Notes under the pieces: model-generated
Databases searched by the model: none
The model's input: the letters and a program-made list of their open reading frames with translations, nothing else
Told to the model about the DNA's origin: nothing
Translations under genes and position numbers: made by a program
Source of the DNA: TPA_inf: Saccharomyces
Lineage: Eukaryota
Direction: 5' to 3'
Assembly (NCBI GenBank): GCA_000146045.2
Contig: BK006942.2
Coordinates: 352,001-416,000 of the forward strand
DNA length: 64,000 bases
Shown: positions 8,885 through 45,293 of the stretch, in pieces
Position numbering within the stretch: the stretch's first letter is position 1
Layout: the number at the start of each line of letters is the position of its first letter

Positions 8885-10924
8885 ATGCCATCGGAAGTTA
8901 CGCCAAAAGTACCTGAGAGGCCCTCAAGGAGGAAGACATCTGAGCTGTTTCCGTTATCCGGCTCTGAATCAGGAGATATTAAAGCTAATAGCGAGCCACC
9001 AACACCAGCAGGAACGCCCAATGTACCAACACGTAGACCCATACTTAAAGCAAAGACGATGACTTCGTTTGAGAGTGGTATGGATCAAGAGAGTTTGCCC
9101 AAGGTACCATTGCAGAGGCCAGTTAGACGCTCCACTACTGAAGAACTAAATAATGTAATGAATAACACCAGTAAGGAGTTAGAGGAGATTGAAAGTTTGA
9201 TTTCAAAGCACAATATACACAATGTTTCCAGGAAAAAAAGTCCAACTTCTGTGGAAGAGGGAAAGGTGGCCGCCATTCATCAAAACGGGCAAAGAAGTGC
9301 ATCAGATAACAAAACTTCTACAAATCCCTCCCCACTCGAAAAAAATGAGCACGAGGGTGCTGAGGGCAATGAGTCTGCTATTTCACCTTCTAATTTAGTT
9401 AACAAGTCTAATAATGAAGTGACAGAGCATAGTGACTCCGAAGACCTTACTGAAAAGCAAAAGGTACATGCTGCCCTAGATAATGAGGCAGGGGATAGAA
9501 GCCATTTTGAAGAAAAGCTCATTCCTGGAGATATGAAAGTACAGGTAGATGTTAGTAAGGACGTAGAAGAAGGCAGCCTCAATGCTCTGCCTCCATCTGG
9601 AATCACAGAATCAGACGACAAAGCTGAAAAGTTCACTAAACATCCTGAATCTAGTTTAGAAGAGCTACAGAAGCATCAAGAACAACAGGAAGAAAAAATT
9701 TTCCAAAATCCAACCGATGAAGAAAGTACTACCTCTTTGAATGAGAAACAAGAAGGCAAGGACAACATGGAAGTGAATTCTCAGCCGCAAGGACCTTCTG
9801 ATACTGAAACAGTTATAGCAGCAACTAGCTCAAACGTTCCTTCACAAATTGCAAGTGAAGAGGAAAATGACGTTCCAGTGATTCCAAGGAGTAGGCCTAA
9901 GAAGGATTTTGAAGCACACGTACAAAAAGAGGAGTTGCCTAACACACAAGAGAAGCGAGTATCAGAAGAGTGTGATTCGACCCTAATTAGTACCGAAGAG
10001 GAAAGTAAAATCCCAAAAATTCCCTCTGAAAGACCAAAGAGACGTGCCCCACCTCCGGTTCCCAAAAAACCTTCTTCAAGAATTGCGGCCTTTCAAGAAA
10101 TGTTACAAAAACAACAGCAACAAGATCTGCATAATAATGGTAATTCTTCAGCTACTACCGCTTCAGCAGATATTGCTAAAAAACACACAGATTCTTCTAT
10201 TACTAGCGATACCACGAAGGCAGATTTTACGAGCAAATTGAATGGACTGTTTGCGCTACCTGGTATGGTGAACCCTGGACAGCTTCCACCTTCCTTGGAG
10301 AAGAAGTTGTCCTCCCCGGATACTGAATCTAAGCTAGGACCCCAGGACCAATCACAGGCAAAAACGGGACCTCTGGGCGGAACTAGAAGAGGTAGAGGAC
10401 CTCGTGGGCGTAAATTACCTTCTAAAGTAGCTAGCGTAGAGAAGATTGAAGAAGATGACAACACTAATAAAATAGAAATATTTAACAATTGGAATGTTTC
10501 CTCTTCCTTCTCTAAGGAAAAAGTCTTAATAGATACTACTCCTGGTGAGCAAGCAGAAAGGGCCTTGGATGAAAAGTCAAAGAGCATTCCCGAGGAACAA
10601 CGAGAACAATCTCCAAATAAGATGGAGGCTGCTCTTTGTCCTTTTGAGCTGGACGAAAAGGAAAAGTTACCTGCTAATGCTGAGTCGGATCCTCTTTCTC
10701 AGTTGCCACAGACGAACGCCGTAGGTAATAGAAAAGCCATAAGTGAGGAATCTCTGTCCCCATCGGAGGCCATCGCCAACAGAGATCAAAACGATACGAC
10801 AGAAATACAGGAACAGCAGATGGAGGACCAAATGGAGGTTGATATGGAAAGAGAACTCTCAGGTGGCTACGAAGACGTTGATTCTGCCTTACATTCAGAA
10901 GAAGCGTCTTTTCACTCCCTTTAG
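8885..10924 (+). CDS. AIM21: Actin-patch and mitochondria-associated protein Aim21: proline-rich, low-complexity, acidic; 679 aa from Met at 8885 (track ORF begins at 8870).
   Basis: ORF 8870..10924. Low-complexity S/E/P-rich sequence with PPPVPKKP polyproline motifs. Position between MPH1 and DJP1. Confidence 0.75.
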   Translation: MPSEVTPKVPERPSRRKTSELFPLSGSESGDIKANSEPPTPAGTPNVPTRRPILKAKTMTSFESGMDQESLPKVPLQRPVRRSTTEELNNVMNNTSKELEEIESLISKHNIHNVSRKKSPTSVEEGKVAAIHQNGQRSASDNKTSTNPSPLEKNEHEGAEGNESAISPSNLVNKSNNEVTEHSDSEDLTEKQKVHAALDNEAGDRSHFEEKLIPGDMKVQVDVSKDVEEGSLNALPPSGITESDDKAEKFTKHPESSLEELQKHQEQQEEKIFQNPTDEESTTSLNEKQEGKDNMEVNSQPQGPSDTETVIAATSSNVPSQIASEEENDVPVIPRSRPKKDFEAHVQKEELPNTQEKRVSEECDSTLISTEEESKIPKIPSERPKRRAPPPVPKKPSSRIAAFQEMLQKQQQQDLHNNGNSSATTASADIAKKHTDSSITSDTTKADFTSKLNGLFALPGMVNPGQLPPSLEKKLSSPDTESKLGPQDQSQAKTGPLGGTRRGRGPRGRKLPSKVASVEKIEEDDNTNKIEIFNNWNVSSSFSKEKVLIDTTPGEQAERALDEKSKSIPEEQREQSPNKMEAALCPFELDEKEKLPANAESDPLSQLPQTNAVGNRKAISEESLSPSEAIANRDQNDTTEIQEQQMEDQMEVDMERELSGGYEDVDSALHSEEASFHSL

Positions 10925-11220
10925 AATCTTATAAATAATATGTATGAATAAACTCTATAGTATGTATCAAGAGAGAAATATGTGAATGACGAGCAAACTA
11001 GAGGTGTTATTAATAATAATGGCATAAAAACTAGATTTTATTCTATATATATATATATATATTTCTTCGACTTTTTTTTTTTTTACCCGCACACCCTGAA
11101 TTTTGTGCTATTTTGAAGCAGAGCGTACTGAACAAATTGGCAGATTTACAAGAGGAATAACAGAGTTATGCTAAATCATTAAGTGTTTCTTGCGGCCAGA
11201 AGGGGCATTATACAAAAGAT

Positions 11221-12519
11221 ATGGTTGTTGATACTGAGTATTACGATTTGTTAGGTGTGTCTACCACTGCATCTTCCATTGAAATAAAAAAGGCCTATAG
11301 AAAGAAATCTATTCAAGAGCATCCTGATAAGAATCCCAATGACCCCACGGCTACCGAAAGGTTTCAAGCAATATCCGAAGCTTATCAAGTTTTAGGTGAC
11401 GATGATCTTCGCGCAAAGTATGATAAGTATGGAAGAAAAGAAGCTATTCCTCAGGGCGGCTTTGAAGATGCAGCTGAACAGTTCTCTGTCATCTTTGGTG
11501 GAGATGCGTTTGCCTCATATATTGGCGAACTGATGCTATTAAAGAACCTACAGAAAACTGAGGAGCTAAATGCTGAAGACGAAGCTGAAAAGGAGAAGGA
11601 GAATGTGGAAACAATGGAAGAATCACCTGCAGACGGTAAGACGAATGGCACCACTAACGCTGTTGATGCAGCATTGGGCAATACTAACGAAAAAGATGAC
11701 AAAAATAAGGCGAGGACAACTTCTGGTAATTTAACTGTACACGATGGAAACAAGAAAAATGAGCAGGTAGGAGCAGAAGCTAAGAAGAAGAAGACAAAAT
11801 TAGAGCAGTTTGAGGAAGAACAAGAGGTAGAAAAGCAAAAAAGAGTAGACCAATTAAGCAAAACATTGATTGAAAGATTATCGATATTAACAGAAAGTGT
11901 CTATGATGATGCATGTAAAGATTCCTTTAAAAAAAAGTTCGAAGAGGAAGCCAATCTTTTAAAGATGGAATCATTTGGTCTGGACATATTACACACAATA
12001 GGCGACGTTTACTACGAAAAAGCTGAAATTTTTCTTGCATCCCAGAACCTGTTCGGAATGGGTGGTATATTTCATTCTATGAAGGCTAAAGGGGGAGTAT
12101 TTATGGATACACTAAGAACTGTTTCGGCAGCCATAGACGCTCAGAATACTATGAAGGAGCTTGAAAAAATGAAAGAAGCTAGCACGAATAATGAGCCTTT
12201 GTTTGACAAAGACGGAAATGAGCAAATTAAGCCAACCACTGAGGAACTGGCGCAGCAAGAGCAGCTATTGATGGGCAAAGTATTGTCGGCTGCTTGGCAT
12301 GGTTCTAAATATGAAATAACATCCACTTTACGTGGCGTTTGTAAAAAAGTACTAGAAGATGACTCGGTAAGTAAGAAAACGCTTATCAGAAGAGCTGAAG
12401 CAATGAAACTATTGGGTGAAGTCTTTAAGAAAACTTTCAGAACCAAAGTCGAACAAGAAGAGGCACAGATCTTTGAAGAACTTGTAGCAGAAGCTACAAA
12501 AAAGAAGAGACATACATGA
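11221..12519 (+). CDS. DJP1: Cytosolic J-domain co-chaperone Djp1 (peroxisomal and mitochondrial protein import), 432 aa.
   Basis: ORF 11221..12519. N-terminal J-domain with HPD motif (YYDLLGV...[15 protein letters not shown]). Confidence 0.85.
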
Positions 12520-13465: not shown

Positions 13466-16400
13466 TCATGGAAGGGGTGGGGGTGGAGGAATACCTGCAG
13501 GTGGAATTGATGGGATACCTGCAGTAGAAACTGGTTGTGCCCCTTCTTCCTCTTCATCTGTACCAACTGATTCAGGAATCGATAAAACGTCATCATCAGA
13601 ATCGGATCCATATGCGCCCGTGCCTTTTTCAGCACCATTGTAGTTATCAACGTGAGCGATAATAGGTTCTGAAGTGGAAGCTTGTTGAGTTGGTAAAGGT
13701 GGGGGTGGAGGCAAAACGCCTCCAGCTAAAGCTGGGGTGGAAGAACCCGATTTTTGCACGGCAGTAGCTATTGCAGGTGCTGAGGGAATTGGAGGTTCTT
13801 GAAAGCCATCAACAGCAGGCAAAGGGGGAGCCAACGGGACGGGTGGCTCCTGAGTAACAGAAGGTGGTATCGGAGCTATTGGAATAGGACTACTCTTTTC
13901 ATTAGAGGTATTCGCCTGAGGGACAGGGACAGCAGGTGGAACAGGGGTAACAGACGGCAAGGGAGCAGCAGTAACAGGTGGAGCACGTGCATGATCAGGA
14001 TGACCAATCTTTGCTTCTTCAACCTTATTATCTACAGCTACGCGGTTATTACTCTCGTCTTCATCAGACCATCCATCATCCTCGTCCTCATCCAATCCTC
14101 TTTGGATTCTTCTTTGCATTTCTGCAGCGCGAGCATCGAAAGTAGATGTAGAGCTAGCTGATGCATCCTTGAAGTATGGATTATGGCCCATTGTCGTGGA
14201 AGGCAGACCAGTACTGTTCTTACCTGCGGCAGGGGTAACAGCAGCGTGTACCGAGCGAGGAGCATTAGTAGAATTTTGCGAAAAAGCTGCAGATGGTGCC
14301 ACTGGAGCGGCCTGAGGAACGTTCACATGGCCGCCAAAGTTGTCTTTTCCGTTTGTCTCCTCTTCGTCACTTTCATTTTGAGCATCCTCAATTTGCTTAC
14401 GTAAAGCTGCAAGTCTTTTTTCTTTATCAGCCTTTTTTTTAAGTTTCAATCGTTTTAGCTCCTCTTGTAAACGCTTTTCTTCATCATCTTCATCTTCATC
14501 ATCGGATTCTTGCTTTGCATTATATACATTCTGAACAGGTTGAGTTGGTTGAACAGGTTGAGTTGGCTGAACAGGTTGAGTTGGCTGAACAGGTTGAGTT
14601 GGCTGAACAGGTTGAGTTGGTTGAACAGGTTGTGTTGATTGAACAGGTTGAGTTGGTTGAGCGACTTCCACATATTTTTCTTCTTGGAATGGAGTTGCTC
14701 TAGGTTCAACTAAATTGGAAGAACCAGCAATCTGTTGTGGCTGTTCTCGAGAGTTTTCACTGCTAATCGATCTGGAACTTTGAGTAACATTTCGCCTATT
14801 CTTATCAAATTTAGCTAATTTTTCCTTCATTCTCTTTTTTGCCTGTTCTTTCAGATAAGCTGCTCTTTCTTCAGCAGTTTTGAACTGAGAATAAGAAGGC
14901 GACGAGGAACGGTCATCTACAGGGGTTGGTGTTGAGGAAGGCACAAAGGGAGATGACTCAGTCACTGATTTATTTGAATTTGACTTCAGATCATCCAAAA
15001 ATTCACGAACACCATCTTCTAACCCTATGCCAAATTCCCATCTTTCAAATTCTTGATTGGATATCATATTCGATCCTGTCATAGTAGACTTCAAGGATGC
15101 AGAAATATCTGATATAGATGACCTTATGTCTTTAATGATTTCTTGGTTCTTACCATTTTCCTGCTGGATTCTCTTGATTTCAGCACTTTGCTGTTCATCT
15201 TCCATGGAAAGTGAATCCTCCGATTCCGTTGATTTTCCTGTTAGAGCAGACATCCTTGCTCTCAACAAAGCCCTACTCTTAGCTTTCTTCCTATCATTTT
15301 CAGTTATTTCACCATTTGGACCAGATCCAATTATCGAAGAAGGATTTTTTTTTCTATACAACTGAATTTTTGCATTGGTAATCTCATTATCAATTGTAGA
15401 AATTTCATTGAATAGGTTTGGAAGTTTGGCGATGATGGCATCAAAGCGGCTTGTCAAATCTGATGGAATAGAACTGTCATAACAGTTTTCAGGATTGCTG
15501 ATATTTTTGATCTCATTTTCCAGTGAAGCAATATTTTTCAGATTTATTTCTCTTGAAAACCCAGCATATTTTGGTTTCGCTGTCTTCTTTTCAACAGTCT
15601 TATCTACCGAAATGTCATCGGTTTGAAGGGTGCTGCTAGAATGATTAACAGATTTAGCAGATGGTGAAGAAAAAGAAGATTGCTCTTCATTTTTCGCAGA
15701 GTAAACCTTCCTACGATTTCTATAGTTCGGCAAAACATCATCATCATTATTTTTGTAGCTCAAGGCATCGATTTTACCAAACGAAGGTTTTTCTTTTGTG
15801 GTCGTTGGCTCTGTCTTTAATTGGTTCTTTAAGTTGTCTAAAAGTTTTGTGCTGGAGGGAATTAAACTTGAAGGTAGGACATTGGGGATTGGCTTCCCGT
15901 TTAATTTACCGTAAACCAAGTGCATACCTAGTGCAAATTCTTGTTTATTCAATTGGCCGGTGTTGTTTATATCACAAAGGTTCCAAATTTGCTCCAAATC
16001 TGCACGATTTAAGCCAGATTTTCTAAAAATCTCCACAGCAGTGGGGGAATCTAACAAACCTTTGTTTTGAGTATCAAAAGTTTCAAAAATTTTATAAAAC
16101 AAAGATTTTTCCTCCGTGGAAATTTTGTCTTGACTTGAGTTATCAATTAAGTTATTATTAAAGTTGGATTTGGTATAAATTTCGTTATTACCAAATCCTG
16201 TCTTTTGGGCAGTCAACGGCATGGTAGCACTAAAGTTAGATGGTGGTAGAAAACCCGTTGGTTGGGGTTGCAACCCGGTTAACTGAGATTGTAATCCTTG
16301 TTGATTAAAGGACAAATTGGGCATACTTGCAGGACCGCTTTGCTGGGGCATAACGGAACCATATCCTCCGGTATACTGAGATTGCAAAGCACCGCCGGTC

Positions 16401-17908
16401 AACTGAGGTCCTAAATTAACGCCAAATGAAGTCTGTGGCATCATACCAGTTGTCTGTGGCATCATACCAGTTGTCTGTGGCATCATACCAGTTGTCTGAG
16501 GTTGCAAAGCATTGCCAGTAATGTTGGGTTGCATAGAGGCAGGTGCTCCTCCAGTAATTTGGGGGTTCAATCCGGGAGTTCCGGTATTCATTGACATGTT
16601 GAAAGTGGTTGGTGCCATAAATCCTGTGGATTGAGGATTCAACGCCGAGGCAACACCGCCTCCAGTAATTTGAGACTGTAATGGGATACCAAAACTAGTT
16701 TGAGGCATATATCCTGTTGGTTGAGGTTGCAAATTTTGTACGCCCGCTGTAATGAATTCATCAAAGGGAGTTTTTGGGGCATCGTTTGCGGAAGAATCCT
16801 GGTTTGCAATGCTTAAATTAATGGCGTCAATAAAACTTGAAACTTCGTTTTTTGTCTTAGAATCCAATTCGTAAGGGATAGTGTCACCTTGTAAGACATC
16901 ATTGATCAAATGCATTGCTAATGCAAATTCAGGAAACAGTAACTCACCTGCTTTTGATGTATCACAAAGCGTCCAAATTCTTGCGAGTTGAGAAGGTGGC
17001 AAACCGGATCTCATCAAAATTTTCCTACAATTAGCACCGGAAACAGTATTCGAACCATTGGTAACAATTGATCTGAATAGAGTCTCAAATTTTGCCTGAT
17101 CTTGGGCAGTAATAAACGACAATCTAATGGCAGGGATTTTGATATCATTGTTTAGACCGTTGTTGGCAAATGAGTTGACAAAGCCAGTTGCGGTGGGCTT
17201 TAATGGTTCTAAGGGAGCTTGGTTTTGCGGTTGAAGGTAAAATCCTGTTTGCTGCGGCTTCAAAGGTTGCAAGGACTGTGCTTGCTGAGGAGGTGGCACC
17301 TGTTGAGGTTGAGATTGATAATAACCAGTGCCCTGGGCCTGAAGGGGCTGCTGGGTTTGATTAGAAGAGATCAAATTGGGTGTAGACACATAATATCCTG
17401 TCCCTTGAGATTGCAAAGGTTGTACTGAGTGTACATTTGCAGTATTAGCAGCTTGGTAATAGCCTGTTCCTTGGGGTTGTATGGATTGTAGCTGAGGCTG
17501 TTGAGCCGGATTAGGTGGAGGCATGGTGCCAGTAGTATTCATCATAGGCATACTGGAATTTGGTACGTATCCCGTATGCTGCGGTTTCGCCTGCTGTTGT
17601 TGCTGCTGGGGTTGTTGGCCAAAATTACCATTACCATATACACTACCATTATTTCCATTATTATTGTAACCCGTTTGGGGCTGCTGTGGCATACTTGAGA
17701 AAGAATTACCAAAACTTTGAGGCATCCCACCAATTCCGGTAGCCTGAGGCTGGTTAAACGCCATTTGCTGTTGTGGTTGAGGCTGGCCTTGGGGCTGGTT
17801 TGAAGACTGACCTTGCTGCTGCTGCGGGTAGAATCCATTTGGTTGTTGCTGCTGTTGCTGCTGTTGCTGCTGGTAACCCATGCCCTGTTGCTGGTACGGG
17901 TTATACAT
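13466..17908 (-). CDS. PAN1: Endocytic scaffold Pan1 (Eps15-like): two EH domains inside long repeats, Q-rich N-terminus, proline-rich C-terminus. 1480 aa.
   Basis: ORF 13466..17908 minus strand. N-terminus [22 protein letters not shown]. Two EH-domain regions, a (QPTQPV)n repeat, and a C-terminal polyproline tail (PPPPPLP). Confidence 0.92.
14533..14655. repeat. 18-nt coding tandem repeat (gaacaggttgagttggct)~7 in PAN1, encoding (QPTQPV)n.
   Basis: Direct reading; near-perfect copies. Confidence 0.9.
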
Positions 17909-18416: not shown

Positions 18417-18488
18417 TCCGATATAGTGTAACGGCTATCACATCACGCTTTCACCGTGGAGACCGGGGTTCGACTCCCCGTATCGGAG
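18417..18488 (+). tRNA. tE(UUC): tRNA-Glu, anticodon UUC, 72 nt, intronless.
   Basis: Sequence TCCGATATAGTGTAACGGCTATCACATCACGCTTTCACCGTGGAGACCGGGGTTCGACTCCCCGTATCGGAG matches yeast tRNA-Glu. It has a GTTCGACTCC T-arm (B box), an A-box-like GTGTAACGG, and a CTTTCAC anticodon loop. A T7 run at ~18503-18509 serves as the Pol III terminator. Confidence 0.93.
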
Positions 18489-37571: not shown

Positions 37572-40500
37572 TTAGAATACAACTGGAAGAGCGAGTAGCA
37601 ACCACATAAAGTTTCCAAGAACCTTGATATTAGCAGCACCTTGGTAAGTACTCGAGATAGAAGGAACAGAGTATGTAGCGACTGCAGAACCAGAAGCAGA
37701 TTGTAGTGGACCAGTTAGAGATGGAGATGTGACAACGGGAGCCACGCTAGAAGCAGAAGCTGTTGTAGCTAGTTGGGATGTAGTCTTGATTGAAATAGGG
37801 TTGGTTGCTGTGGCCACAGTTTCGTAATTCTTGGCACCATTTGAACCTGGAATCAAAGTGGTTATGTAAGTGGTTGGGATGGACTTGGTTGTGTAACCAG
37901 TTGTTGTTTCGCCAGCGGAGTTAGTACCAACAGATGACTCAGTGGTAATAACTGTGGTTGGAATAGCCGTCGTGACAGGGGTGGTAGCCGAAGGTGCAGT
38001 GTTTTCGCCTGCGCTTGCAGAACTTACGATAGTCTTAGCAGAGCATACAGATGTAGTTTCACCGGCAGCGTTTGTAGCAGCAGAACATTCAGTAGTGGTT
38101 ATTGTAGTTGGTACGGCATTAGTGGCAGGAGTTACTGGTGCACTTGGAGCCAAAGTGGTTACATAGGTGGTTGGTACAGACTTTGTTGTGTAACCAGTTG
38201 TCGTCTTACCAGCGGAGTTAGTACCCGTAGAGGATTCAGTGGTAACAACGGTGGTTGTGACAGCTGTTGTAACAAGGGTGGTAGCTTCAGTAGTGTATTC
38301 GCCAGTACCAGTTGAACAAGGAACAGTGGTTGTGACAGTCTTTGGAGAGCATCCAGAGGTAGTTTCACCGGCAGAGTTTGTACCTGTAGAGCAAACCGTA
38401 GTAGTAATAGTGGTTGGGGTGAAATTGGTAACCGTAGTGACTGATGGAGTTGGAGCAATTGTGGTTAGGTAAGTGGTTGGAATGTTTTTGGTGACAAATG
38501 TAGTTGTAATTTCACCACCTGGTTTTGTACTAGTAGAATACTCAGTAGTAACGACGGTGGTTGAGACAACTGTAGTTACAGGTGTGGTAGGTGAAGTGGT
38601 TGTTGATTCCGAGGCGGTTTCGCTTGGACTGGTTGAACATGGAACAGTAGTTGTAATGGTCTTTGGAGAGCATCCAGAGGTAGTTTCACCGGCAGAGTTT
38701 GTTCCTGTAGAGCAAACTGTAGTAGTAATAGTGGTTGTTGATGATGTAGTGACAGAAGTCGTAGTTGTAGTTGGAACAGTAGTTGTAACGGTCTTTGGAG
38801 AGCATCCAGAGGTAGTTTCACCGGCAGAGTTTGTTCCTGTAGAGCAAACCGTAGTGGTAATAGTGGTTGTTGATGGTGTAGTGACAGAAGTCGTAGTTTT
38901 AGTTGGAACAATGGTAGTTTCGGTTGTAGAAGAAACAGAGGTTTCTGTTTGACTGCCAGGGTATTTGGATGATGATGGAGTGACAGTAGTGCCAGTAGAA
39001 AAGCTTTCAGTAGTAGAGCTGAATGGAATTGAAGATGGAGCGGAGGAAGTGATGTTGCTAGAGGAAGATGGGGTTGGTACTGGTGCTACAGAGCTTTCAG
39101 TGGTGGAGCTGGATACTGGAGCAGAAGAGCTTTCAGTAGTAGAGCTTGATGGGGTTGGTACTGGAACAGAAGAGCTTTCAGTGCTAGAGCTGAATGGGGT
39201 TGAAGATGGAGCGGAGGAAGTGATGTTGCTAGAGGAAGATGGGGTTGGTACTGGTGCTACAGAGCTTTCAGTAGTAGAGCTTGATGGGGTTGGTACTGGA
39301 GCAGAAGAGCTTTCGGTAGTAGAGCTGGATGGAGTTGGCACTGGAGCAGAAGAGCTTTCAGTAGTAGAGCTGGATGGAGTTGGTACTGGAGCAGAAGAGC
39401 TTTCAGTGGTAGAGCTGGTTACTGGAGCAGAAGAGCTTTCAGTAGTAGAGCTGGATGGAGTTGGTACTGGAGCAGAAGAGCTTTCAGTAGTAGAGCTGGA
39501 TGGAGTTGGTACTGGAGCAGAAGAGCTTTCAGTAGTAGAGCTGGATGGAGTTGGTACTGGAGCAGAAGAGCTTTCAGTGGTAGAGCTGGTTACTGGAGCA
39601 GAAGAGCTTTCAGTGGTAGAGCTGGTTACTGGAGCAGAAGAGCTTTCAGTAGTAGAGCTGGATGGAGTTGGTACTGGAGCAGAAGAGCTTTCAGTAGTAG
39701 AGCTGGATGGGGTTGGTACTGGAGCAGAAGAGCTTTCAGTAGTAGAGCTGGATGGAGTTGGTACTGGAGCAGAAGAGCTTTCAGTGGTAGAGCTGGTTAC
39801 TGGAGCAGAAGAGCTTTCAGTAGTAGAGCTTGATGGGGTTGGAGCTGGAGCAGAAGAGCTTTCAGTAGTAGAGCTTGATGGAGTTGGTACTGGAGCAGAA
39901 GAGCTTTCAGTAGTAGAGCTTGATGGAGTTGGCACTGGAGCAGAAGAGCTTTCAGTGGTGGAGCTGGTTACTGGAGTAGAAGAGCTTTCAGTAGTAGAGC
40001 TGGATGGAGTTGGTACTGGAGCAGAAGAGCTTTCAGTGGTAGAGCTGGTTACTGGAGCAGAAGAGCTTTCAGTGGTGGAGCTTGATGGGGTTGGAGCTGG
40101 AGCAGAAGAGCTTTCAGTAGTAGAGCTGGATGGAGTTGGTACTGGAGCAGAAGAGCTTTCAGTGGTAGAGCTGGTTACTGGAGCAGAAGAGCTTTCAGTA
40201 GTAGAGCTGGATGGAGTTGGTACTGGAGCAGAAGAGCTTTCAGTGGTAGAGCTGGTTACTGGAGCAGAAGAGCTTTCAGTAGTAGAGCTGGATGGAGTTG
40301 GTACTGGAGCAGAAGAGCTTTCAGTGGTAGAGCTGGTTACTGGAGCAGAAGAGCTTTCAGTGGTAGAGCTGGTTACTGGAGCAGAAGAGCTTTCAGTGGT
40401 AGAGCTGGTTACTGGAGCAGAAGAGCTTTCAGTGGTAGAGCTGGTTACTGGAGCAGAAGAGCTTTCAGTAGTAGAGCTGGATGGAGTTGGTACTGGAGCA

Positions 40501-41675
40501 GAAGAGCTTTCAGTGGTAGAGCTGGTTACTGGAGCAGAAGAGCTTTCAGTGGTAGAGCTGGTTACTGGAGCAGAAGAGCTTTCAGTAGTAGAGCTTGATG
40601 GGGTTGGTACTGGAGCAGAAGAGCTTTCAGTGGTAGAGCTGGTTACTGGAGCAGAAGAGCTTTCAGTAGTAGAGCTGGATGGAGTTGGTACTGGAGCAGA
40701 AGAACTTTCAGTAGTAGAGCTTGATGGGGTTGGTACTGGAGTAGTAGTCTTCTTAGTGCATGTCTTAGATGTGGTAGTTTTCTTCTTTGTACATGGAGTG
40801 GTGTCGTGATGAGGAGGTGTAGGCTTTTCCTTTGTGCATGAGGTAGTGGTTGGGGGTGTAGGCTTTTCCTTAGTGCATGAGGTAGTGGTTGGTGTAGCAG
40901 GAGCGGTGGTTGATGATGATGTAGATGACTCGGAAGTGCTAGATGTAGTGGTAGATGACTCGGAAGTGCTAGATGTAGTGGTAGATGACTCGGAAGTGCT
41001 AGATGTAGTGGTAGATGACTCGGAAGTGCTAGATGTAGTGGTAGATGACTTCGTACCGCCACAATTATTGTCACAATCTATGTTCCAATAGAAGCCTGGG
41101 AAATCCGTTTGAGAGTGGCCTTGATTGTCATAGTTGTTACAACCAGTAGACAAATCAAAAGATGTAGTTCCCCATTGCCAGGAGCTTGCATATTGAGCGG
41201 CACTACCTTGCAAATACTCGAATTGAATTTGGAAGTTAGGCATCCACACCTGACAGCTGTTGACATCTTGTGTGGCATAAACTTCAAAAGTGGCTGTGAA
41301 ATCAGTTGGGTTGTCAATCAAATAGGTATTTTCGTTGTAACCGTATAGTTGGACGGTACCTTTTGGACCAGTGACACCAATGATTTTCAAAGACCATAGA
41401 TACTTCAGGTCAATATTTTCTTTACCTTTGACATGAATAGTGATTTGGTATGTGTTGTCTTGAACCCAAGAAACGGAAGTCACATCCAAAGTATACTGCA
41501 TGATATTTTGCTGGTCCATGTGCCAATTGAAGTCTAAGTTGGGACAGCCATTAACGATAGAATTACAGCTAGTTCCTTCGGAGGATCCTCTTGGAACTAG
41601 TGCAGTTGGAAAACCCAAAGCCGAGTTAAATAGAAGCGAAAGGACCAAATAAGCGAGTAGAAATGGTCTTTGCAT
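37572..41675 (-). CDS. FLO11: GPI-anchored cell-surface flocculin/adhesin Flo11 (Muc1), 1367 aa: signal peptide, N-terminal Flo11 adhesion domain, very long Ser/Thr-rich tandem-repeat stalk, C-terminal GPI signal.
   Basis: ORF 37572..41675 minus strand. N-terminus MQRPFLLAYLVLSLLFNSALG. Central ~1.8 kb of near-perfect tandem repeats encodes SSTTESSSAPVPTPS-type units. Hydrophobic C-terminus (NFMWLLLALPVVF) preceded by small residues, consistent with a GPI omega site. Confidence 0.95.
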   Translation of the reverse strand: MQRPFLLAYLVLSLLFNSALGFPTALVPRGSSEGTSCNSIVNGCPNLDFNWHMDQQNIMQYTLDVTSVSWVQDNTYQITIHVKGKENIDLKYLWSLKIIGVTGPKGTVQLYGYNENTYLIDNPTDFTATFEVYATQDVNSCQVWMPNFQIQFEYLQGSAAQYASSWQWGTTSFDLSTGCNNYDNQGHSQTDFPGFYWNIDCDNNCGGTKSSTTTSSTSESSTTTSSTSESSTTTSSTSESSTTTSSTSESSTSSSTTAPATPTTTSCTKEKPTPPTTTSCTKEKPTPPHHDTTPCTKKKTTTSKTCTKKTTTPVPTPSSSTTESSSAPVPTPSSSTTESSSAPVTSSTTESSSAPVPTPSSSTTESSSAPVTSSTTESSSAPVTSSTTESSSAPVPTPSSSTTESSSAPVTSSTTESSSAPVTSSTTESSSAPVTSSTTESSSAPVTSSTTESSSAPVPTPSSSTTESSSAPVTSSTTESSSAPVPTPSSSTTESSSAPVTSSTTESSSAPVPTPSSSTTESSSAPAPTPSSSTTESSSAPVTSSTTESSSAPVPTPSSSTTESSSTPVTSSTTESSSAPVPTPSSSTTESSSAPVPTPSSSTTESSSAPAPTPSSSTTESSSAPVTSSTTESSSAPVPTPSSSTTESSSAPVPTPSSSTTESSSAPVPTPSSSTTESSSAPVTSSTTESSSAPVTSSTTESSSAPVPTPSSSTTESSSAPVPTPSSSTTESSSAPVPTPSSSTTESSSAPVTSSTTESSSAPVPTPSSSTTESSSAPVPTPSSSTTESSSAPVPTPSSSTTESSVAPVPTPSSSSNITSSAPSSTPFSSSTESSSVPVPTPSSSTTESSSAPVSSSTTESSVAPVPTPSSSSNITSSAPSSIPFSSTTESFSTGTTVTPSSSKYPGSQTETSVSSTTETTIVPTKTTTSVTTPSTTTITTTVCSTGTNSAGETTSGCSPKTVTTTVPTTTTTSVTTSSTTTITTTVCSTGTNSAGETTSGCSPKTITTTVPCSTSPSETASESTTTSPTTPVTTVVSTTVVTTEYSTSTKPGGEITTTFVTKNIPTTYLTTIAPTPSVTTVTNFTPTTITTTVCSTGTNSAGETTSGCSPKTVTTTVPCSTGTGEYTTEATTLVTTAVTTTVVTTESSTGTNSAGKTTTGYTTKSVPTTYVTTLAPSAPVTPATNAVPTTITTTECSAATNAAGETTSVCSAKTIVSSASAGENTAPSATTPVTTAIPTTVITTESSVGTNSAGETTTGYTTKSIPTTYITTLIPGSNGAKNYETVATATNPISIKTTSQLATTASASSVAPVVTSPSLTGPLQSASGSAVATYSVPSISSTYQGAANIKVLGNFMWLLLALPVVF
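38950..40760. repeat. Coding minisatellite inside FLO11: dozens of head-to-tail copies of ~30- and ~45-nt units (…gcagaagagctttcagtagtagagctggatggagttggtactgga… on the + strand). Flanking shorter arrays sit at 40895-41050 (30 nt x4, coding SSTSESSTTT) and 38630-38900.
   Basis: Direct reading. The same 30-45 nt motif recurs almost perfectly across ~1.8 kb. This generates the long artefactual antisense ORF 38965..40809 in the track. Confidence 0.95.
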
Positions 41676-41883
41676 AGTGTGCGTATATGGATTTTTGAGG
41701 CCTACAAAAGTATATTTTAATTAGAACCACAACATGACGAGGGATAATAACTGATGAATAGGGTGCTTTTTATACGTTTATTTTAGGAAGCAAGAGATCC
41801 TTTTTATCAATTGGGAACCCTTCAACAATTTGTACTGGTAAGTCTATGAGTTATCCGTTCTTGAACTAGAAGAGAGCGCAGTA

Positions 41884-44800
41884 ACGTAAATGCTTGAACA
41901 TATTTGTTAAGGTAAATAAAACTGCCCTAATTTTTTATTTAATTCGAACACGGACATTCCTCAGATAAGACAAGTCTAACAGTTAATTCAAAGTAGAAAG
42001 AGCTTAATTTCTCCGTAAAAGAACGAAGTATATTGCGATGATGCCTTGAATCCCAATTGGTAACTCTATGACATTTTTGTAAAGGTTACCTCATCAGAAG
42101 AGAACGGACCTAAAAAGATGACCCACATTTCTCTAGAAACAATCGTACCCTAATAGTTGCTTTAAATTGCTCAGCGGTCAAGAAAACGTATCATAATGTT
42201 ATTCTATTCTTGAGCAGGCACTTTTAGGGTTGGGCAATGTCCTCAAAGTAAATATTAGTAAACAAACGAATACCTCCAAATCCATTGAATTGAAAATCCA
42301 TTCCAAGCTCTGCGCTTCCAATTGTTAATCACACCACCGATAGGCAATAGAAGTTCTGTCCGTGAAGATACCGCAGAATGAGTTGTGCCCGTATTGTTGC
42401 ACCTAATTACGGAATCCCAAGGTATGCGATGTCCCAGTACGACCGTTAAAAAGACAACATGAATGACTGATCTGTTTAAGAGTATAGGCAGAAATAAAAA
42501 AGTTTGTGCAATGCCTGACAAAAAAAAGCTAATTTTTCTTTTAAGAAAGAATGTCATTCTTTTACCGCAAAGTTAATTTCTGCCTACAATCACCTTCTAA
42601 ACGCTCGGACTGATTGCCTTGAGCAATCAGCAGTTCTTTGAAGCCACTGTCGCAACAAAGAAAAAGAAAAGGGAAGTCCATTCTTAGCCCCAAAGAAAAG
42701 GATGACAAAAAAAAGAAAAAAAGTTAACTCGTACCAGTAAAGCCTAATTTTGCAGTGATCGCTAGCCCCAGAGAAGGACTAAAGACAAAAAGGACCCACT
42801 CGATAGGAAAATAACGGCCGAAACTCTTTGGGCGACATTTTCTTGTTAAGAAAACAGAAGAAAAAAACCTTAATTTGAACTTTCCAGGCACACCCAAAAA
42901 GGATTATGCTTATGTAATGCCACATTCCGAGAAACTGAAAGGCAAAAAAGAAAAAGCCTTTTTTTTCCTGCCGCGAAAGTTTAATTTGCCTACCGGCGTT
43001 CCTATTGGAGTCAGGAAAAGATCACTAGGAATTACAGCTGTGAGAACATACTCTGGGGCTGGCGTAGGCACACAATCCGGTATTCCTAAAGTTTTGTGGT
43101 ACAAAACTCCATACCTAAAACATAAAACAAATCTCACCCGTGGATCCTTTTATTCATAATACCCCGTCCTGCACGCCGTGGAACTGAGTCTAAGTTGACA
43201 AGGCTACGAATGAATTTTGGGAAATGCATACGAAGAGGACTGAAAAAGTAGCAGGTTTCATGTGGTGGAAATACCGATTAGCGCATTCACATTCGTGTTA
43301 GGGTCCGTTTTCCCGCACAGCTTTCGAAATATGAAACAATGTCCGTCTGCGTCAGCAGCTCAGATAAGGAAAAAAGAGATGGTAAAAAACATTCGAGAAA
43401 AACAAGTACTGCAGGTGCATGTCCTCAATGCATGCAAGTGACCGTTTTGGGGTGGTGAGAACCATCACTAATTAAACTTTTCCTATTTTTTGTCTTTACA
43501 ATATTCATTAGTCTTCATTCGCATTGGGTGTTCTACAGAAATGCTGGGCAAATCTGGAGATGGGTTGATACGCTAGCGTTCCTACTTGTAAGGGAGCAAA
43601 GATGTTAGATTTTTCTGTTTTGGAATTTTAGCTTTCTGTCCACCTTAGGTGTATGGCTCGGCTCTCGATGAGAATAGGAAAGTATTCCGCACTAACCGAT
43701 GGGGGGTTGTTCTTACCGTAAAACCACACTTGAAAGCTATACGTAGTTGGAACCCCAAAACGACGGTATGAAATGAGGGATACATTAGGGGACAAAAAGG
43801 ACTAGTAATTTCTTTGAAATTTGTAATAATAATTCGAAAAGTTGAGCATCCTTAATCTGACATGGCACACAGATGAAAAGGTGTTGAAAGCACTGTAAAA
43901 GAGGTTAAGAAATATCCTCTTTTCAACGAGCTTCATTTTGAGTATAATATGTTTATATTTGTCGCTGGCCCTGAGATGCTCAACTGTAAGTAAAACATCG
44001 GATGTGTGGATAAAAAGAACATGGAAAACGAGTGCAGCAACGACTATATTTAAAATAGTATCATTCATAATTCGATAGATGGACTTTTCAGCTACTTGTA
44101 AACGGCGAAATTGTGTCTAAGTTGTGAATGAGCTTTTCATTTTCATTTGCGTACCGAAGTGGTAAAACTGACGACCTAAAGTACGATATACGGAATAAAG
44201 CAAGTTCTAATACTCTCTGCAGTTTGACCAGTGCTACTTGGCGCTGTTCATTCCAATTAGCCGTAAATTTGTGAAATAGATCCCAAGATAATCTCCGTTT
44301 TATTTGCTTCCAAAGAGGTTATCTTTTTAATAGTTGGCATTTTCTAGCTTCTTGGTTGCTATAAGGCATAGTTGAAGTGCAGTGAGAGGAAGAGGGGAAC
44401 TCACGGAAAGAGACTCCTTATACTTTTGTCAACCGGTGTGTTCCAAAATTCGCTAGTTAAACGTTTTATTAGCAGCGGTCCCATTGAGCCAAAACCCCGC
44501 TGAGCGTTGCGACACAATCTGATCATACCACATAATCATTGCAGCGCCTACTTTTTAACTTCTAGCAGCCAAATTGTTATTCAGATTTAGTTGGCGGTAC
44601 GACTCCTTACAGCAGTAAATTATTCGAATTAGTAACAAACGAGTGATTGGTATGTGGAGATAGGAAACGAAGACTGAGCAGAAGCACCCACGCTAAGTAA
44701 TTGTATTCTTGAATTGGGAGCCTGAAGAATTATGATCAAGCTCAGCATCTTTCCGTAGCGTCTTCGAGAATTTGTCCTGTGAGCGGAAGGTTGAAAGTTA

Positions 44801-45082
44801 TAAATGATGTCTTATTTTTTTGCATGATCTCCCCAGACCCAGATGTCATCTGTAAAGAATTTAGTAGGACAATTGAAGACGCTGTCTTCCAATTGATTCA
44901 GCGAAACCTTTTCTTAAGATCATTCATATTCTTGTCAAAACACAGATCAGCGTCATATTATTCTTGTCTCGACATTAGGCCGTAATTTCGTCGAAGAAAA
45001 ATGATCTATGTCATTGTAAATATCTACAATTCCAGCTATTTACGATAATCACGTTAGAATCTTTTGAATGAATGTCTTTCGA
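41884..45082 (-). ncRNA. ICR1: Approximate position of the ~3.2 kb regulatory lncRNA ICR1, transcribed through the FLO11 promoter towards FLO11. Coordinates are from memory of the reference annotation, not derived from sequence.
   Basis: Established knowledge only: ICR1 starts ~3.4 kb upstream of the FLO11 ATG and represses FLO11 in cis. Nothing in the raw sequence lets me confirm the transcript boundaries. Confidence 0.35.
43900..45000 (+). ncRNA. PWR1: Approximate position of lncRNA PWR1, antisense to the 5' part of ICR1. It promotes FLO11 expression by interfering with ICR1. Boundaries uncertain.
   Basis: Established knowledge only (the Sfl1/Flo8-controlled ncRNA toggle). Cannot be verified from sequence alone. 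Confidence 0.25.
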
Positions 45083-45293
45083 TACTTTTCCACGCTTGAA
45101 AGTTCGCATTCTTTTGGCGTTTTGTATCCTTATTATTCCAAACTTTGATCCGTTTCAACAACGGAAAAGGGAAAAATGAAAAAGTGCTGGTAAGTGAAAA
45201 ATTATGAAAACTCGCTAAACGGCGAAGTTTAGATGTGAGACAAGCAGCAATGGAAGTATAGGTTGGTATTGAATATCTGTGGTTACTCTAAAG

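Follow-up and report, generated by a model that had tools for sequence, protein, structure and literature searches.

We analysed a 64,000-nucleotide (nt) stretch of Saccharomyces DNA (GCA_000146045.2, contig BK006942.2, positions 352,001 to 416,000 of the forward strand; hereafter the window, with positions counted from its first letter) and found that its long tandemly repeated region is almost certainly the Ser/Thr/Pro-rich B domain of FLO11, the gene for a glycosylphosphatidylinositol (GPI)-anchored cell-wall adhesin of S. cerevisiae, in its S288C reference form. We put the probability of this reading at roughly 0.97, and nothing in the evidence contradicts either the arrays or the gene identity. 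The feature is already known: published work includes the sequence of the S288C reference allele, its division into the repeat regions RI, RII and RIII, and comparisons with other strains. The practical yield of the present analysis is a clean unit-level parse of the core array, with its order, into 22 units of 45 nt and 16 units of 36 nt. A description of the window made from its letters alone (the sequence-only reading) had already assigned the region to FLO11 and called it hypervariable, and our results are set against it where they bear on it.

The core array is an in-frame minisatellite of two unit classes

Tandem arrays were present in FLO11 where the sequence-only reading had placed them. 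Tandem Repeats Finder (TRF) reported a period-45 array at 39114-40741 with 39.2 copies and a score of 1743, and alternative periods of 81 and 126 nt with scores of up to 1823. Base autocorrelation over 39081-40736 peaked at lags of 45, 81, 126 and 171 nt (0.65, 0.64, 0.59 and 0.59, respectively), compared with a maximum of 0.33 among 200 shuffles and a median of 0.30 for 1.66-kb windows over the 64 kb. The six highest-ranking 1.66-kb windows of the whole stretch all lay in FLO11. This is the internal periodicity for which a dot-plot of the open reading frame (ORF) against itself had been proposed as a check. Canonical units cover 1656 nt, while the distance between the unique anchors on either side, degenerate units included, is 1805 nt, so that the earlier figure of about 1.8 kb was a fair one.

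The unit structure itself departed from what had been described. Instead of units of 30-45 nt, the core is composed of 45-nt and 36-nt units, the 30-nt unit being confined to a separate array that encodes TTSSTSESST. Nor do a long and a short unit alternate: the parsed order is irregular, with the two classes interspersed (LLsLssLssssLsLsLLsLsLLLsLLLssLLLsLLLLs, where L is 45 nt and s is 36 nt), and a 30-residue degenerate unit stands before the last two. The 45-nt class comprises VPTPSSSTTESSSAP and three single-residue variants, the 36-nt class VTSSTTESSSAP and one variant, and the short unit corresponds to the long unit without 9 nt at its 5' end. Identical DNA was shared by 14 of the 16 short units and by 11 of the 22 long ones. 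Mean pairwise nucleotide identity was 0.98 within the short class and 0.95 within the long class, the high identity that characterises a hypervariable minisatellite. Codon differences from the unit consensus were synonymous in 25 cases and non-synonymous in six. The longest exact internal repeat measured 184 nt at an offset of 81 nt, the length of one long plus one short unit. At the 3' end of the core we found a 171-nt duplication, with copies beginning at amino acids (aa) 800 and 857 (39278 and 39107 on the minus strand); both this duplication and a 39-nt array of two copies (Table 1) had escaped the sequence-only reading.

The segment encoded by the canonical units (aa 314-865) consists of 41% Ser and 21% Thr (a combined fraction of 0.62), with a Pro fraction of 0.16, which is the composition of a Ser/Thr-rich B domain. 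All periods detected in the gene (30, 36, 39, 45, 81, 126, 132 and 171 nt) are multiples of 3 and the ORF runs through them uninterrupted, so that the repeats are in frame throughout.

Two side observations concern the array. GC skew on the plus strand was +0.52 to +0.53 over 39001-41000, compared with roughly -0.25 to +0.28 outside the gene, where it lay mostly within ±0.2. The skew of the array arises because the repeat is made up of TCT, ACT, AGC and CCA codons on the coding (minus) strand. A review (PMC8617999, Table 2) gives '63 nt x24, 60.8% conserved' for the main FLO11 repeat of S288c, unlike the 45/36-nt parse obtained here; that entry is probably an artefact of repeat-finding software.

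The gene is FLO11 and the allele is that of S288C

The assignment to FLO11 was upheld by the N-terminal domain, by solved structures and by the expected neighbouring genes (described below). The Pfam Flo11 domain PF10182, which denotes the fibronectin type III-like A domain of Flo11 adhesins, matched the N-terminus over its entire profile (1-151 of 151) with E=1.3e-71 and 240 bits against a cutoff of 25. This match lies inside the A domain, at aa 43-193 (41097-41549). The crystallised Flo11 A domain (PDB 4UYR, 4UYR_A) matches residues 21-211 of the ORF at 100% identity, and a second Flo11 structure (PDB 4UYS, 4UYS_A), spanning residues 30-211, is likewise 100% identical. Looking up the full 1367-aa sequence in the protein collection gave no exact match, and identity with the S288C protein rests on the DNA loci described next. 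When the N-terminal 313 aa were used as a homology query, the matches were limited to Flo11 models that were short, partial or truncated and to the paralogue Bsc1; full-length Flo11 was not among them.

The allele was identified by its length, its unit positions and its agreement with two further assemblies. The ORF length equals the value published for S288c (PMC8617999, Table 2). Exact copies of VPTPSSSTTESSSAP number 18, and they stand at the residue positions given for S288C by Barua et al. 2016 (PMC4989245), whose list departs from our parse at two apparent typographical errors, 636-651 and 652-667 against 638-652 and 653-667 here. The synthetic synIX copy (locus L003; locus numbers are used below only to tell alleles apart) differs from the FLO11 of the window by 141 bases recoded in blocks and by no amino acid over the 1367. 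In L008, an independent assembly, unit order is as in the window, and the four single-nucleotide polymorphisms all lie outside the array and change one amino acid. Taken together, these agreements indicate that the window carries the S288C reference allele and that its array is not an assembly artefact.

The synthetic nature of L003 was apparent from its surroundings. This sequence (GCA_030034595.1, CP125382.1; 1-20303) contains eight loxPsym sites (ATAACTTCGTATAATGTACATTATACGAAGTTAT) within 20 kb and is therefore part of a synthetic Sc2.0-type chromosome. Since the anchor-to-anchor segment lengths are unchanged, the repeat array was kept in the synthetic chromosome.

Natural alleles differ by whole repeat units

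We compared the window with nine other S. cerevisiae FLO11 loci, fetched through two truncated Flo11 models and the neighbouring 100-aa ORF. Their ATG-to-stop spans were 2548, 3604, 3624, 4104 (twice), 4116, 4182, 4244 and 4299 nt, with 6-40 core motifs. The ten alleles thus showed eight distinct spans, a copy-number polymorphism that agrees with the earlier description of the window as one allele of a fast-evolving locus. Even two haplotypes of one assembly differed (4299 against 4244 nt). The comparison of repeat number with named strains, which had also been suggested, pointed the same way, in that the published ORF lengths are 4104 bp for S288c, 3633 bp for Sigma1278b, 4890 bp for the flor strain 133d and 5166 bp for the wine strain L69 (PMC8617999). 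The FLO11 alleles designated WA and NA measure 4014 and 3654 bp (PMC7263189).

Unit order was distinct in every natural allele save the S288C-like L008, and synIX matched the window by segment lengths. Among alleles with both anchors, the segment from the pre-core to the post-core anchor measured 386, 1355, 1805 or 1958 nt. Arrays outside the core varied by their own unit lengths. The RI segment, from the end of the A domain to the pre-core anchor, was 248 nt in the window, 218 nt in L006 and 188 nt in L009, that is, in steps of 30, and RI copy number was 2-4 in these three alleles, where it could be scored. The RIII segment changed in steps of 132, from 293 nt in the window to 161 nt in L002 (one unit fewer) and 425 nt in L004 (one unit more), for a range of 1-3 copies. 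The translations showed one copy of the 39-nt array in L001 and absence of that segment in L004. The 171-nt super-unit was present in three copies in L009 and in one truncated copy in L001, L002 and L004. Three alleles (L004, L005 and L007), all without the pre-core anchor, carried an additional 267 nt (89 aa) in the C-terminal region, a duplication apparently like the 'RR2' of strain L69 in Bouyx et al. 2021 (PMC8457840). In translation, L004 showed a duplicated TTAVTTTVV module, and the TSCTKEKPTPP/HHDTTPCTKKK segment that precedes the core was missing from it.

The unique A-domain and C-terminal sequences were 94-100% identical among alleles, the A domain reaching about 6% DNA divergence. 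In length, the in-frame alleles L004 (4299 nt), L006 (3624 nt) and L009 (4182 nt) each depart from the ORF of the window by a multiple of 3, and in translation whole units are seen to be gained or lost. Across the natural alleles, units are gained, lost and reordered as wholes, and this holds for all arrays, including the C-terminal module. Compared with the window, other FLO11 alleles are alike in locus, in the 45/36-nt unit family and in domain order, but differ in the number and order of units. Coding defects appeared in some alleles: the spans of L001, L002 and L005 are not divisible by 3, and that of L007 is in frame but interrupted by an early stop at aa 292. These frame breaks and the early stop are likely to be caused by base-level errors of long-read assemblies.

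In L002 (GCA_030035875.1, strain ASN) the A domain occurs a second time at about 10950-11700, after eight repeat units, in a copy that starts from SEGTSCNS. Many small indels and substitutions separate it from the first copy, and it could be either a real, degraded 'two-headed' allele or a collapsed long-read artefact.

The sequence-only reading had also remarked that arrays of this kind are often collapsed or mis-assembled, and we encountered several instances. Two further sequences (L010 and L011) are contigs of about 2 kb that end 2-5 units into the array. Short-read pipelines could not resolve the B domain in the study of Oppler et al. 2019 (PMC6834051). Many public assemblies carry FLO11 gene models with truncations, frameshifts or gaps at the array. 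In the S. eubayanus reference (L012, GCA_001298625.1), runs of N of 1275 and 960 nt (9119-10393 and 10688-11647) occupy exactly the FLO11 B domain. The repeat unit that remains visible there, SSVETSSTPAPTPS, is related to the S. cerevisiae unit and diverged from it, which suggests that units may have been homogenised within each species.

Proposed mechanism of array change and its phenotypic effect

What is said here on de novo instability and on the phenotypic effect of the array draws on the literature. According to established work, slippage during replication and recombination, either unequal or intrachromatid, would act on the near-identical units and change their number while the reading frame is preserved. 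The Ser/Thr/Pro-rich segment would be heavily O-mannosylated and form an extended stalk. This stalk would position the A domain, which is homophilic and hydrophobic, beyond the cell wall and add to surface hydrophobicity, such that the length and composition of the array may influence adhesion, invasive growth and the formation of mats or flor when FLO11 is expressed. The sources for this mechanism are Verstrepen 2005 and Fidalgo 2006 and 2008, in the portions relayed by a review (PMC8617999), together with work cited in PMC8457840 and PMC6834051. In S288C, FLO11 is unexpressed owing to a flo8 nonsense mutation (PMC8617999). The length of the allele is therefore phenotypically silent in that strain and represents a historical rather than a selected state.

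The step size of array change may be legible in the unit strings. Their order is not random. The allele in the window contains recurring exact multi-unit blocks, namely an L+s block of 81 nt, a run of four identical 36-nt units inside the core, and an LLLs block of 171 nt, and the LLLs block is also present in the ASN allele. From these patterns we propose tentatively, at somewhat below even odds, that most mutational steps could be multi-unit unequal exchanges rather than single-unit slippage, and that unit strings could be aligned as characters. If so, allele genealogies and step-size spectra could be derived from long-read population data, for which published repeat tables are insufficient.

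Weighing of alternative explanations

Several points detract from parts of the allele comparison or of the proposed mechanism. A number of comparison alleles come from nanopore 'collapsed' assemblies, and their unit counts may be partly in error; L006, to judge by its accession series, may be a short-read assembly and could be collapsed. What we saw are allele differences, which are the outcome of slippage or recombination and not such an event itself. We find it very improbable, nonetheless, that the length or order of the array in the window is itself the product of a collapsed or mis-joined assembly. Arrays of this type do break assemblies, as the contigs that end within them, the S. eubayanus gaps and the B domain left unresolved by Oppler et al. 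illustrate, but the window has an unbroken, in-frame ORF whose length and 18 exact unit positions equal those of the published S288C sequence, the independent L008 assembly shares its unit order and length, and synIX shares its segment lengths and encodes an identical protein. Error in the comparison genomes as the main source of the differences between alleles has a better claim and is still improbable. It would account for the frame-breaking spans of L001, L002 and L005, the early stop of L007 and the indel-riddled second A domain of L002, and short-read collapse could produce an allele such as L006, whose flanks are identical to S288C and which nevertheless has 480 nt fewer. However, whole units are gained or lost in the in-frame L004, L006 and L009, and single-base errors cannot yield differences of hundreds to 1500 nt. 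Sizing by polymerase chain reaction gave B domains of about 650-3100 bp in 64 isolates (PMC6834051), and alleles published from Sanger or long-read data extend from 3633 to 5166 bp. Least credible of all is the proposition that the repeats are read from the plus strand, where a 614-aa ORF (38965..40809, ELSVVELDGVGTGAE repeats) provides a long open frame. That frame exists because the repeat unit has no stop codons in the corresponding reverse frame; we rejected it as a gene on account of its TTG start, the lack of any Pfam match and its monotonous, mirror-image repeat peptide. The minus strand, on the other hand, encodes a complete adhesin with a putative signal peptide, a solved A domain and a putative C-terminal anchor signal. 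Smaller plus-strand ORFs in reverse frames were rejected likewise, since they start with TTG or GTG, encode mirror images of the repeat peptide and match no Pfam family.

A different alternative concerns why the array varies and not what the sequence is, and it deserves more weight than the preceding ones. Variation in repeat number might be largely a neutral by-product of an unstable sequence, with adhesion set chiefly by the sequence of the A domain, by the level of expression (promoter, FLO8, ICR1/PWR1) and by the C-terminal amyloid cores. Three published studies speak for it and correspondingly against a functional role of array length. Barua 2016 (PMC4989245) found that A domains suffice for the specificity of flocculation and attributed 'secondary or minor differences' to the repeats. 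Bouyx 2021 (PMC8457840) reported that hydrophobicity depends mainly on the abundance of Flo11p, and that L69, with 46 repeats, forms no flor. In Barre 2020 (PMC7263189), a swap of the whole WA repeat array was without effect on chronological life span and FLO11 alleles were without effect on buoyancy. The S288C allele, moreover, is intact although the gene is unexpressed. On the opposite side, longer arrays are associated with hydrophobicity and with velum formation in flor yeast in the portions of the review PMC8617999 that cover Fidalgo 2006 and 2008 and Zara 2009, and the same portions relate from Fidalgo 2008 that repeats and phenotype were lost after five YPD passages without selection and kept under selection. 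Deletion of about half of the repeats lowered aggregation by about 50% and strongly reduced agar invasion (PMC8457840). The ratio of 25 synonymous to six non-synonymous codon differences between units is also consistent with constraint on the peptide. On balance we regard the neutral explanation as rather unlikely; a functional effect of repeat length is real in print and contested.

Domain organisation around the core

The remaining features of the gene are collected in Table 1. The hydrophobic N-terminus and the C-terminal tail (GNFMWLLLALPVVF) are visible by eye and agree with published boundaries (PMC4989245). In that work Barua et al. 2016 defined regions RI (aa 210-250), RII (aa 312-876) and RIII (aa 930-1086) of Flo11p. 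These regions of S288C Flo11p are the three arrays flagged by the sequence-only reading, and nothing substantive differs. Two of the flanking arrays required adjustment in detail. The array given as four 30-nt units at 40895-41050 is real, with 4.3 copies, and starts at 40921 instead. An array is present where one had been placed at 38630-38900 (38640-38910 in our analysis), and it proved to be a different kind of repeat, built from a 132-nt module containing Cys. The 19-aa core of this module (CSTGTNSAGETTSGCSPKT) recurs in a third, exact copy at 38337-38393 and in a fourth, diverged copy at 38031-38087, both located by motif search. Autocorrelation in the C-terminal region peaked at a lag of 297.

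Table 1. Features of the FLO11 locus in the window.
Feature	Position	Strand	Basis
FLO11 (MUC1/YIR019C) ORF, 1367 aa + stop, 4104 nt, S288C allele	37572..41675	-	ORF list, Pfam, PDB identity, published length, repeat positions
Secretion signal (putative), aa 1-21 (MQRPFLLAYLVLSLLFNSALG)	41613..41675	-	Hydrophobic N-terminus by eye; boundary per Barua 2016
A domain (adhesion, fibronectin type III-like), aa 22-207	41055..41612	-	PF10182; 4UYR_A identity
RI array, 30-nt unit x4.3, 100% identical, encodes TTSSTSESST	40921..41050	-	TRF
39-nt unit x2.0, 97% identical, encodes TTTSCTKEKPTPP (TSCTKEKPTPP)	40816..40892	-	TRF
Core (RII): 38 canonical units (22 x 45 nt VPTPSSSTTESSSAP, 16 x 36 nt VTSSTTESSSAP) and one 30-aa degenerate unit	39081..40736	-	Unit parse, TRF, autocorrelation
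Degenerate tail of core, aa 866-902, part of 171-nt duplicated super-unit (STTESSVAPVPTPSSSSNITSSAPSS...)	38970..39080	-	Motif search
RIII array, 132-nt unit x2.1, 96% identical, 44-aa Cys-containing module (…TTITTTVCSTGTNSAGETTSGCSPKT.TTTVP)	38640..38910	-	TRF
C-terminal region: diverged Cys modules, beta-aggregation cores, GPI-signal tail	37575..38639	-	Motif search
Beta-aggregation core VVSTTVV	38550-38570	-	Motif search; amyloid role from literature
Beta-aggregation core TTAVTTTVV	38244-38270	-	Motif search; amyloid role from literature
Hydrophobic GPI-signal tail (putative)	37575-37619	-	Read by eye; GPI anchor from literature
ORF-poor upstream region, 3.6 kb, 100-aa ORF at 42255-42557	41676..45278	-	ORF lists

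Chromosomal setting and other features of the window

The 3.6-kb stretch upstream of the gene corresponds to the FLO11 promoter, which is described as unusually large, at more than 3 kb, and as carrying the noncoding RNAs ICR1/PWR1 (review PMC8617999). Its 100-aa ORF had no Pfam match, and an Rfam scan was negative at and around the FLO11 locus. Downstream of FLO11 lie two bZIP proteins; upstream, past the 3.6-kb gap, Pfam identified an MRS1/Ydc2-type protein, a signal-peptidase S24 protein, a Zn2Cys6 regulator, Apc15p and a dual-specificity phosphatase, followed farther out by an amidohydrolase, an allantoin-type permease and malate synthase. These are the domains expected on the right arm of S. 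cerevisiae chromosome IX, and we take the genes, following the chromosome map, to be MET28, YAP5, MRS1, SEC11, DAL81, MND2, YVH1 and the DAL cluster (DAL1, DAL4 and DAL7). The gene order around FLO11 is common to the nine S. cerevisiae assemblies and S. eubayanus, which places all of these loci at orthologous positions.

Elsewhere in the window, shorter coding tandem repeats occur at 14532-14660 (18 nt x7.2, 94%) and 16431-16498 (21 nt x3.2, 100%) in an ORF on the minus strand (13466..17908). This ORF encodes 1480 aa with EH and EF-hand domains and is probably PAN1. The sole tRNA of the window, a tRNA-Glu (anticodon UUC) at 18417-18488 on the plus strand, was also its sole Rfam match.

Comparison with known repeat systems

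Repeat variation in FLO11 is a textbook case of coding repeats that allow rapid, reversible change of a cell-surface trait, with practical relevance to flor and wine yeasts, to biofilm work and to strain typing. The gene belongs with a class of intragenic coding minisatellites in yeast cell-wall genes that Verstrepen and colleagues reportedly described in 2005. FLO1, FLO5 and FLO9, with their 135-nt repeats, and HPF1 resemble FLO11 in having in-frame, Ser/Thr-rich, homogeneous units in cell-surface glycoproteins. Their copy number, like that of FLO11, is polymorphic among strains and has been tied to adhesion, flocculation or buoyancy. The differences lie in unit structure, in the adhesion domain and in location. 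FLO11 units encode 12 and 15 aa in two interspersed length classes, whereas the FLO1 unit encodes 45 aa; the A domain of FLO11 is fibronectin-III-like and homophilic, whereas Flo1, Flo5 and Flo9 carry a PA14 lectin domain; and FLO11 is not subtelomeric. Farther afield, the 60-nt variable number tandem repeat (VNTR) of human MUC1 also encodes a Ser/Thr/Pro-rich, O-glycosylated stalk and shows copy-number polymorphism as FLO11 does. This likeness is a functional analogy. Mucin VNTRs and the FLO11 repeats share no homology, and FLO11 differs in its anchoring, through GPI and cell-wall glucan, and in its glycan, which is O-mannose.

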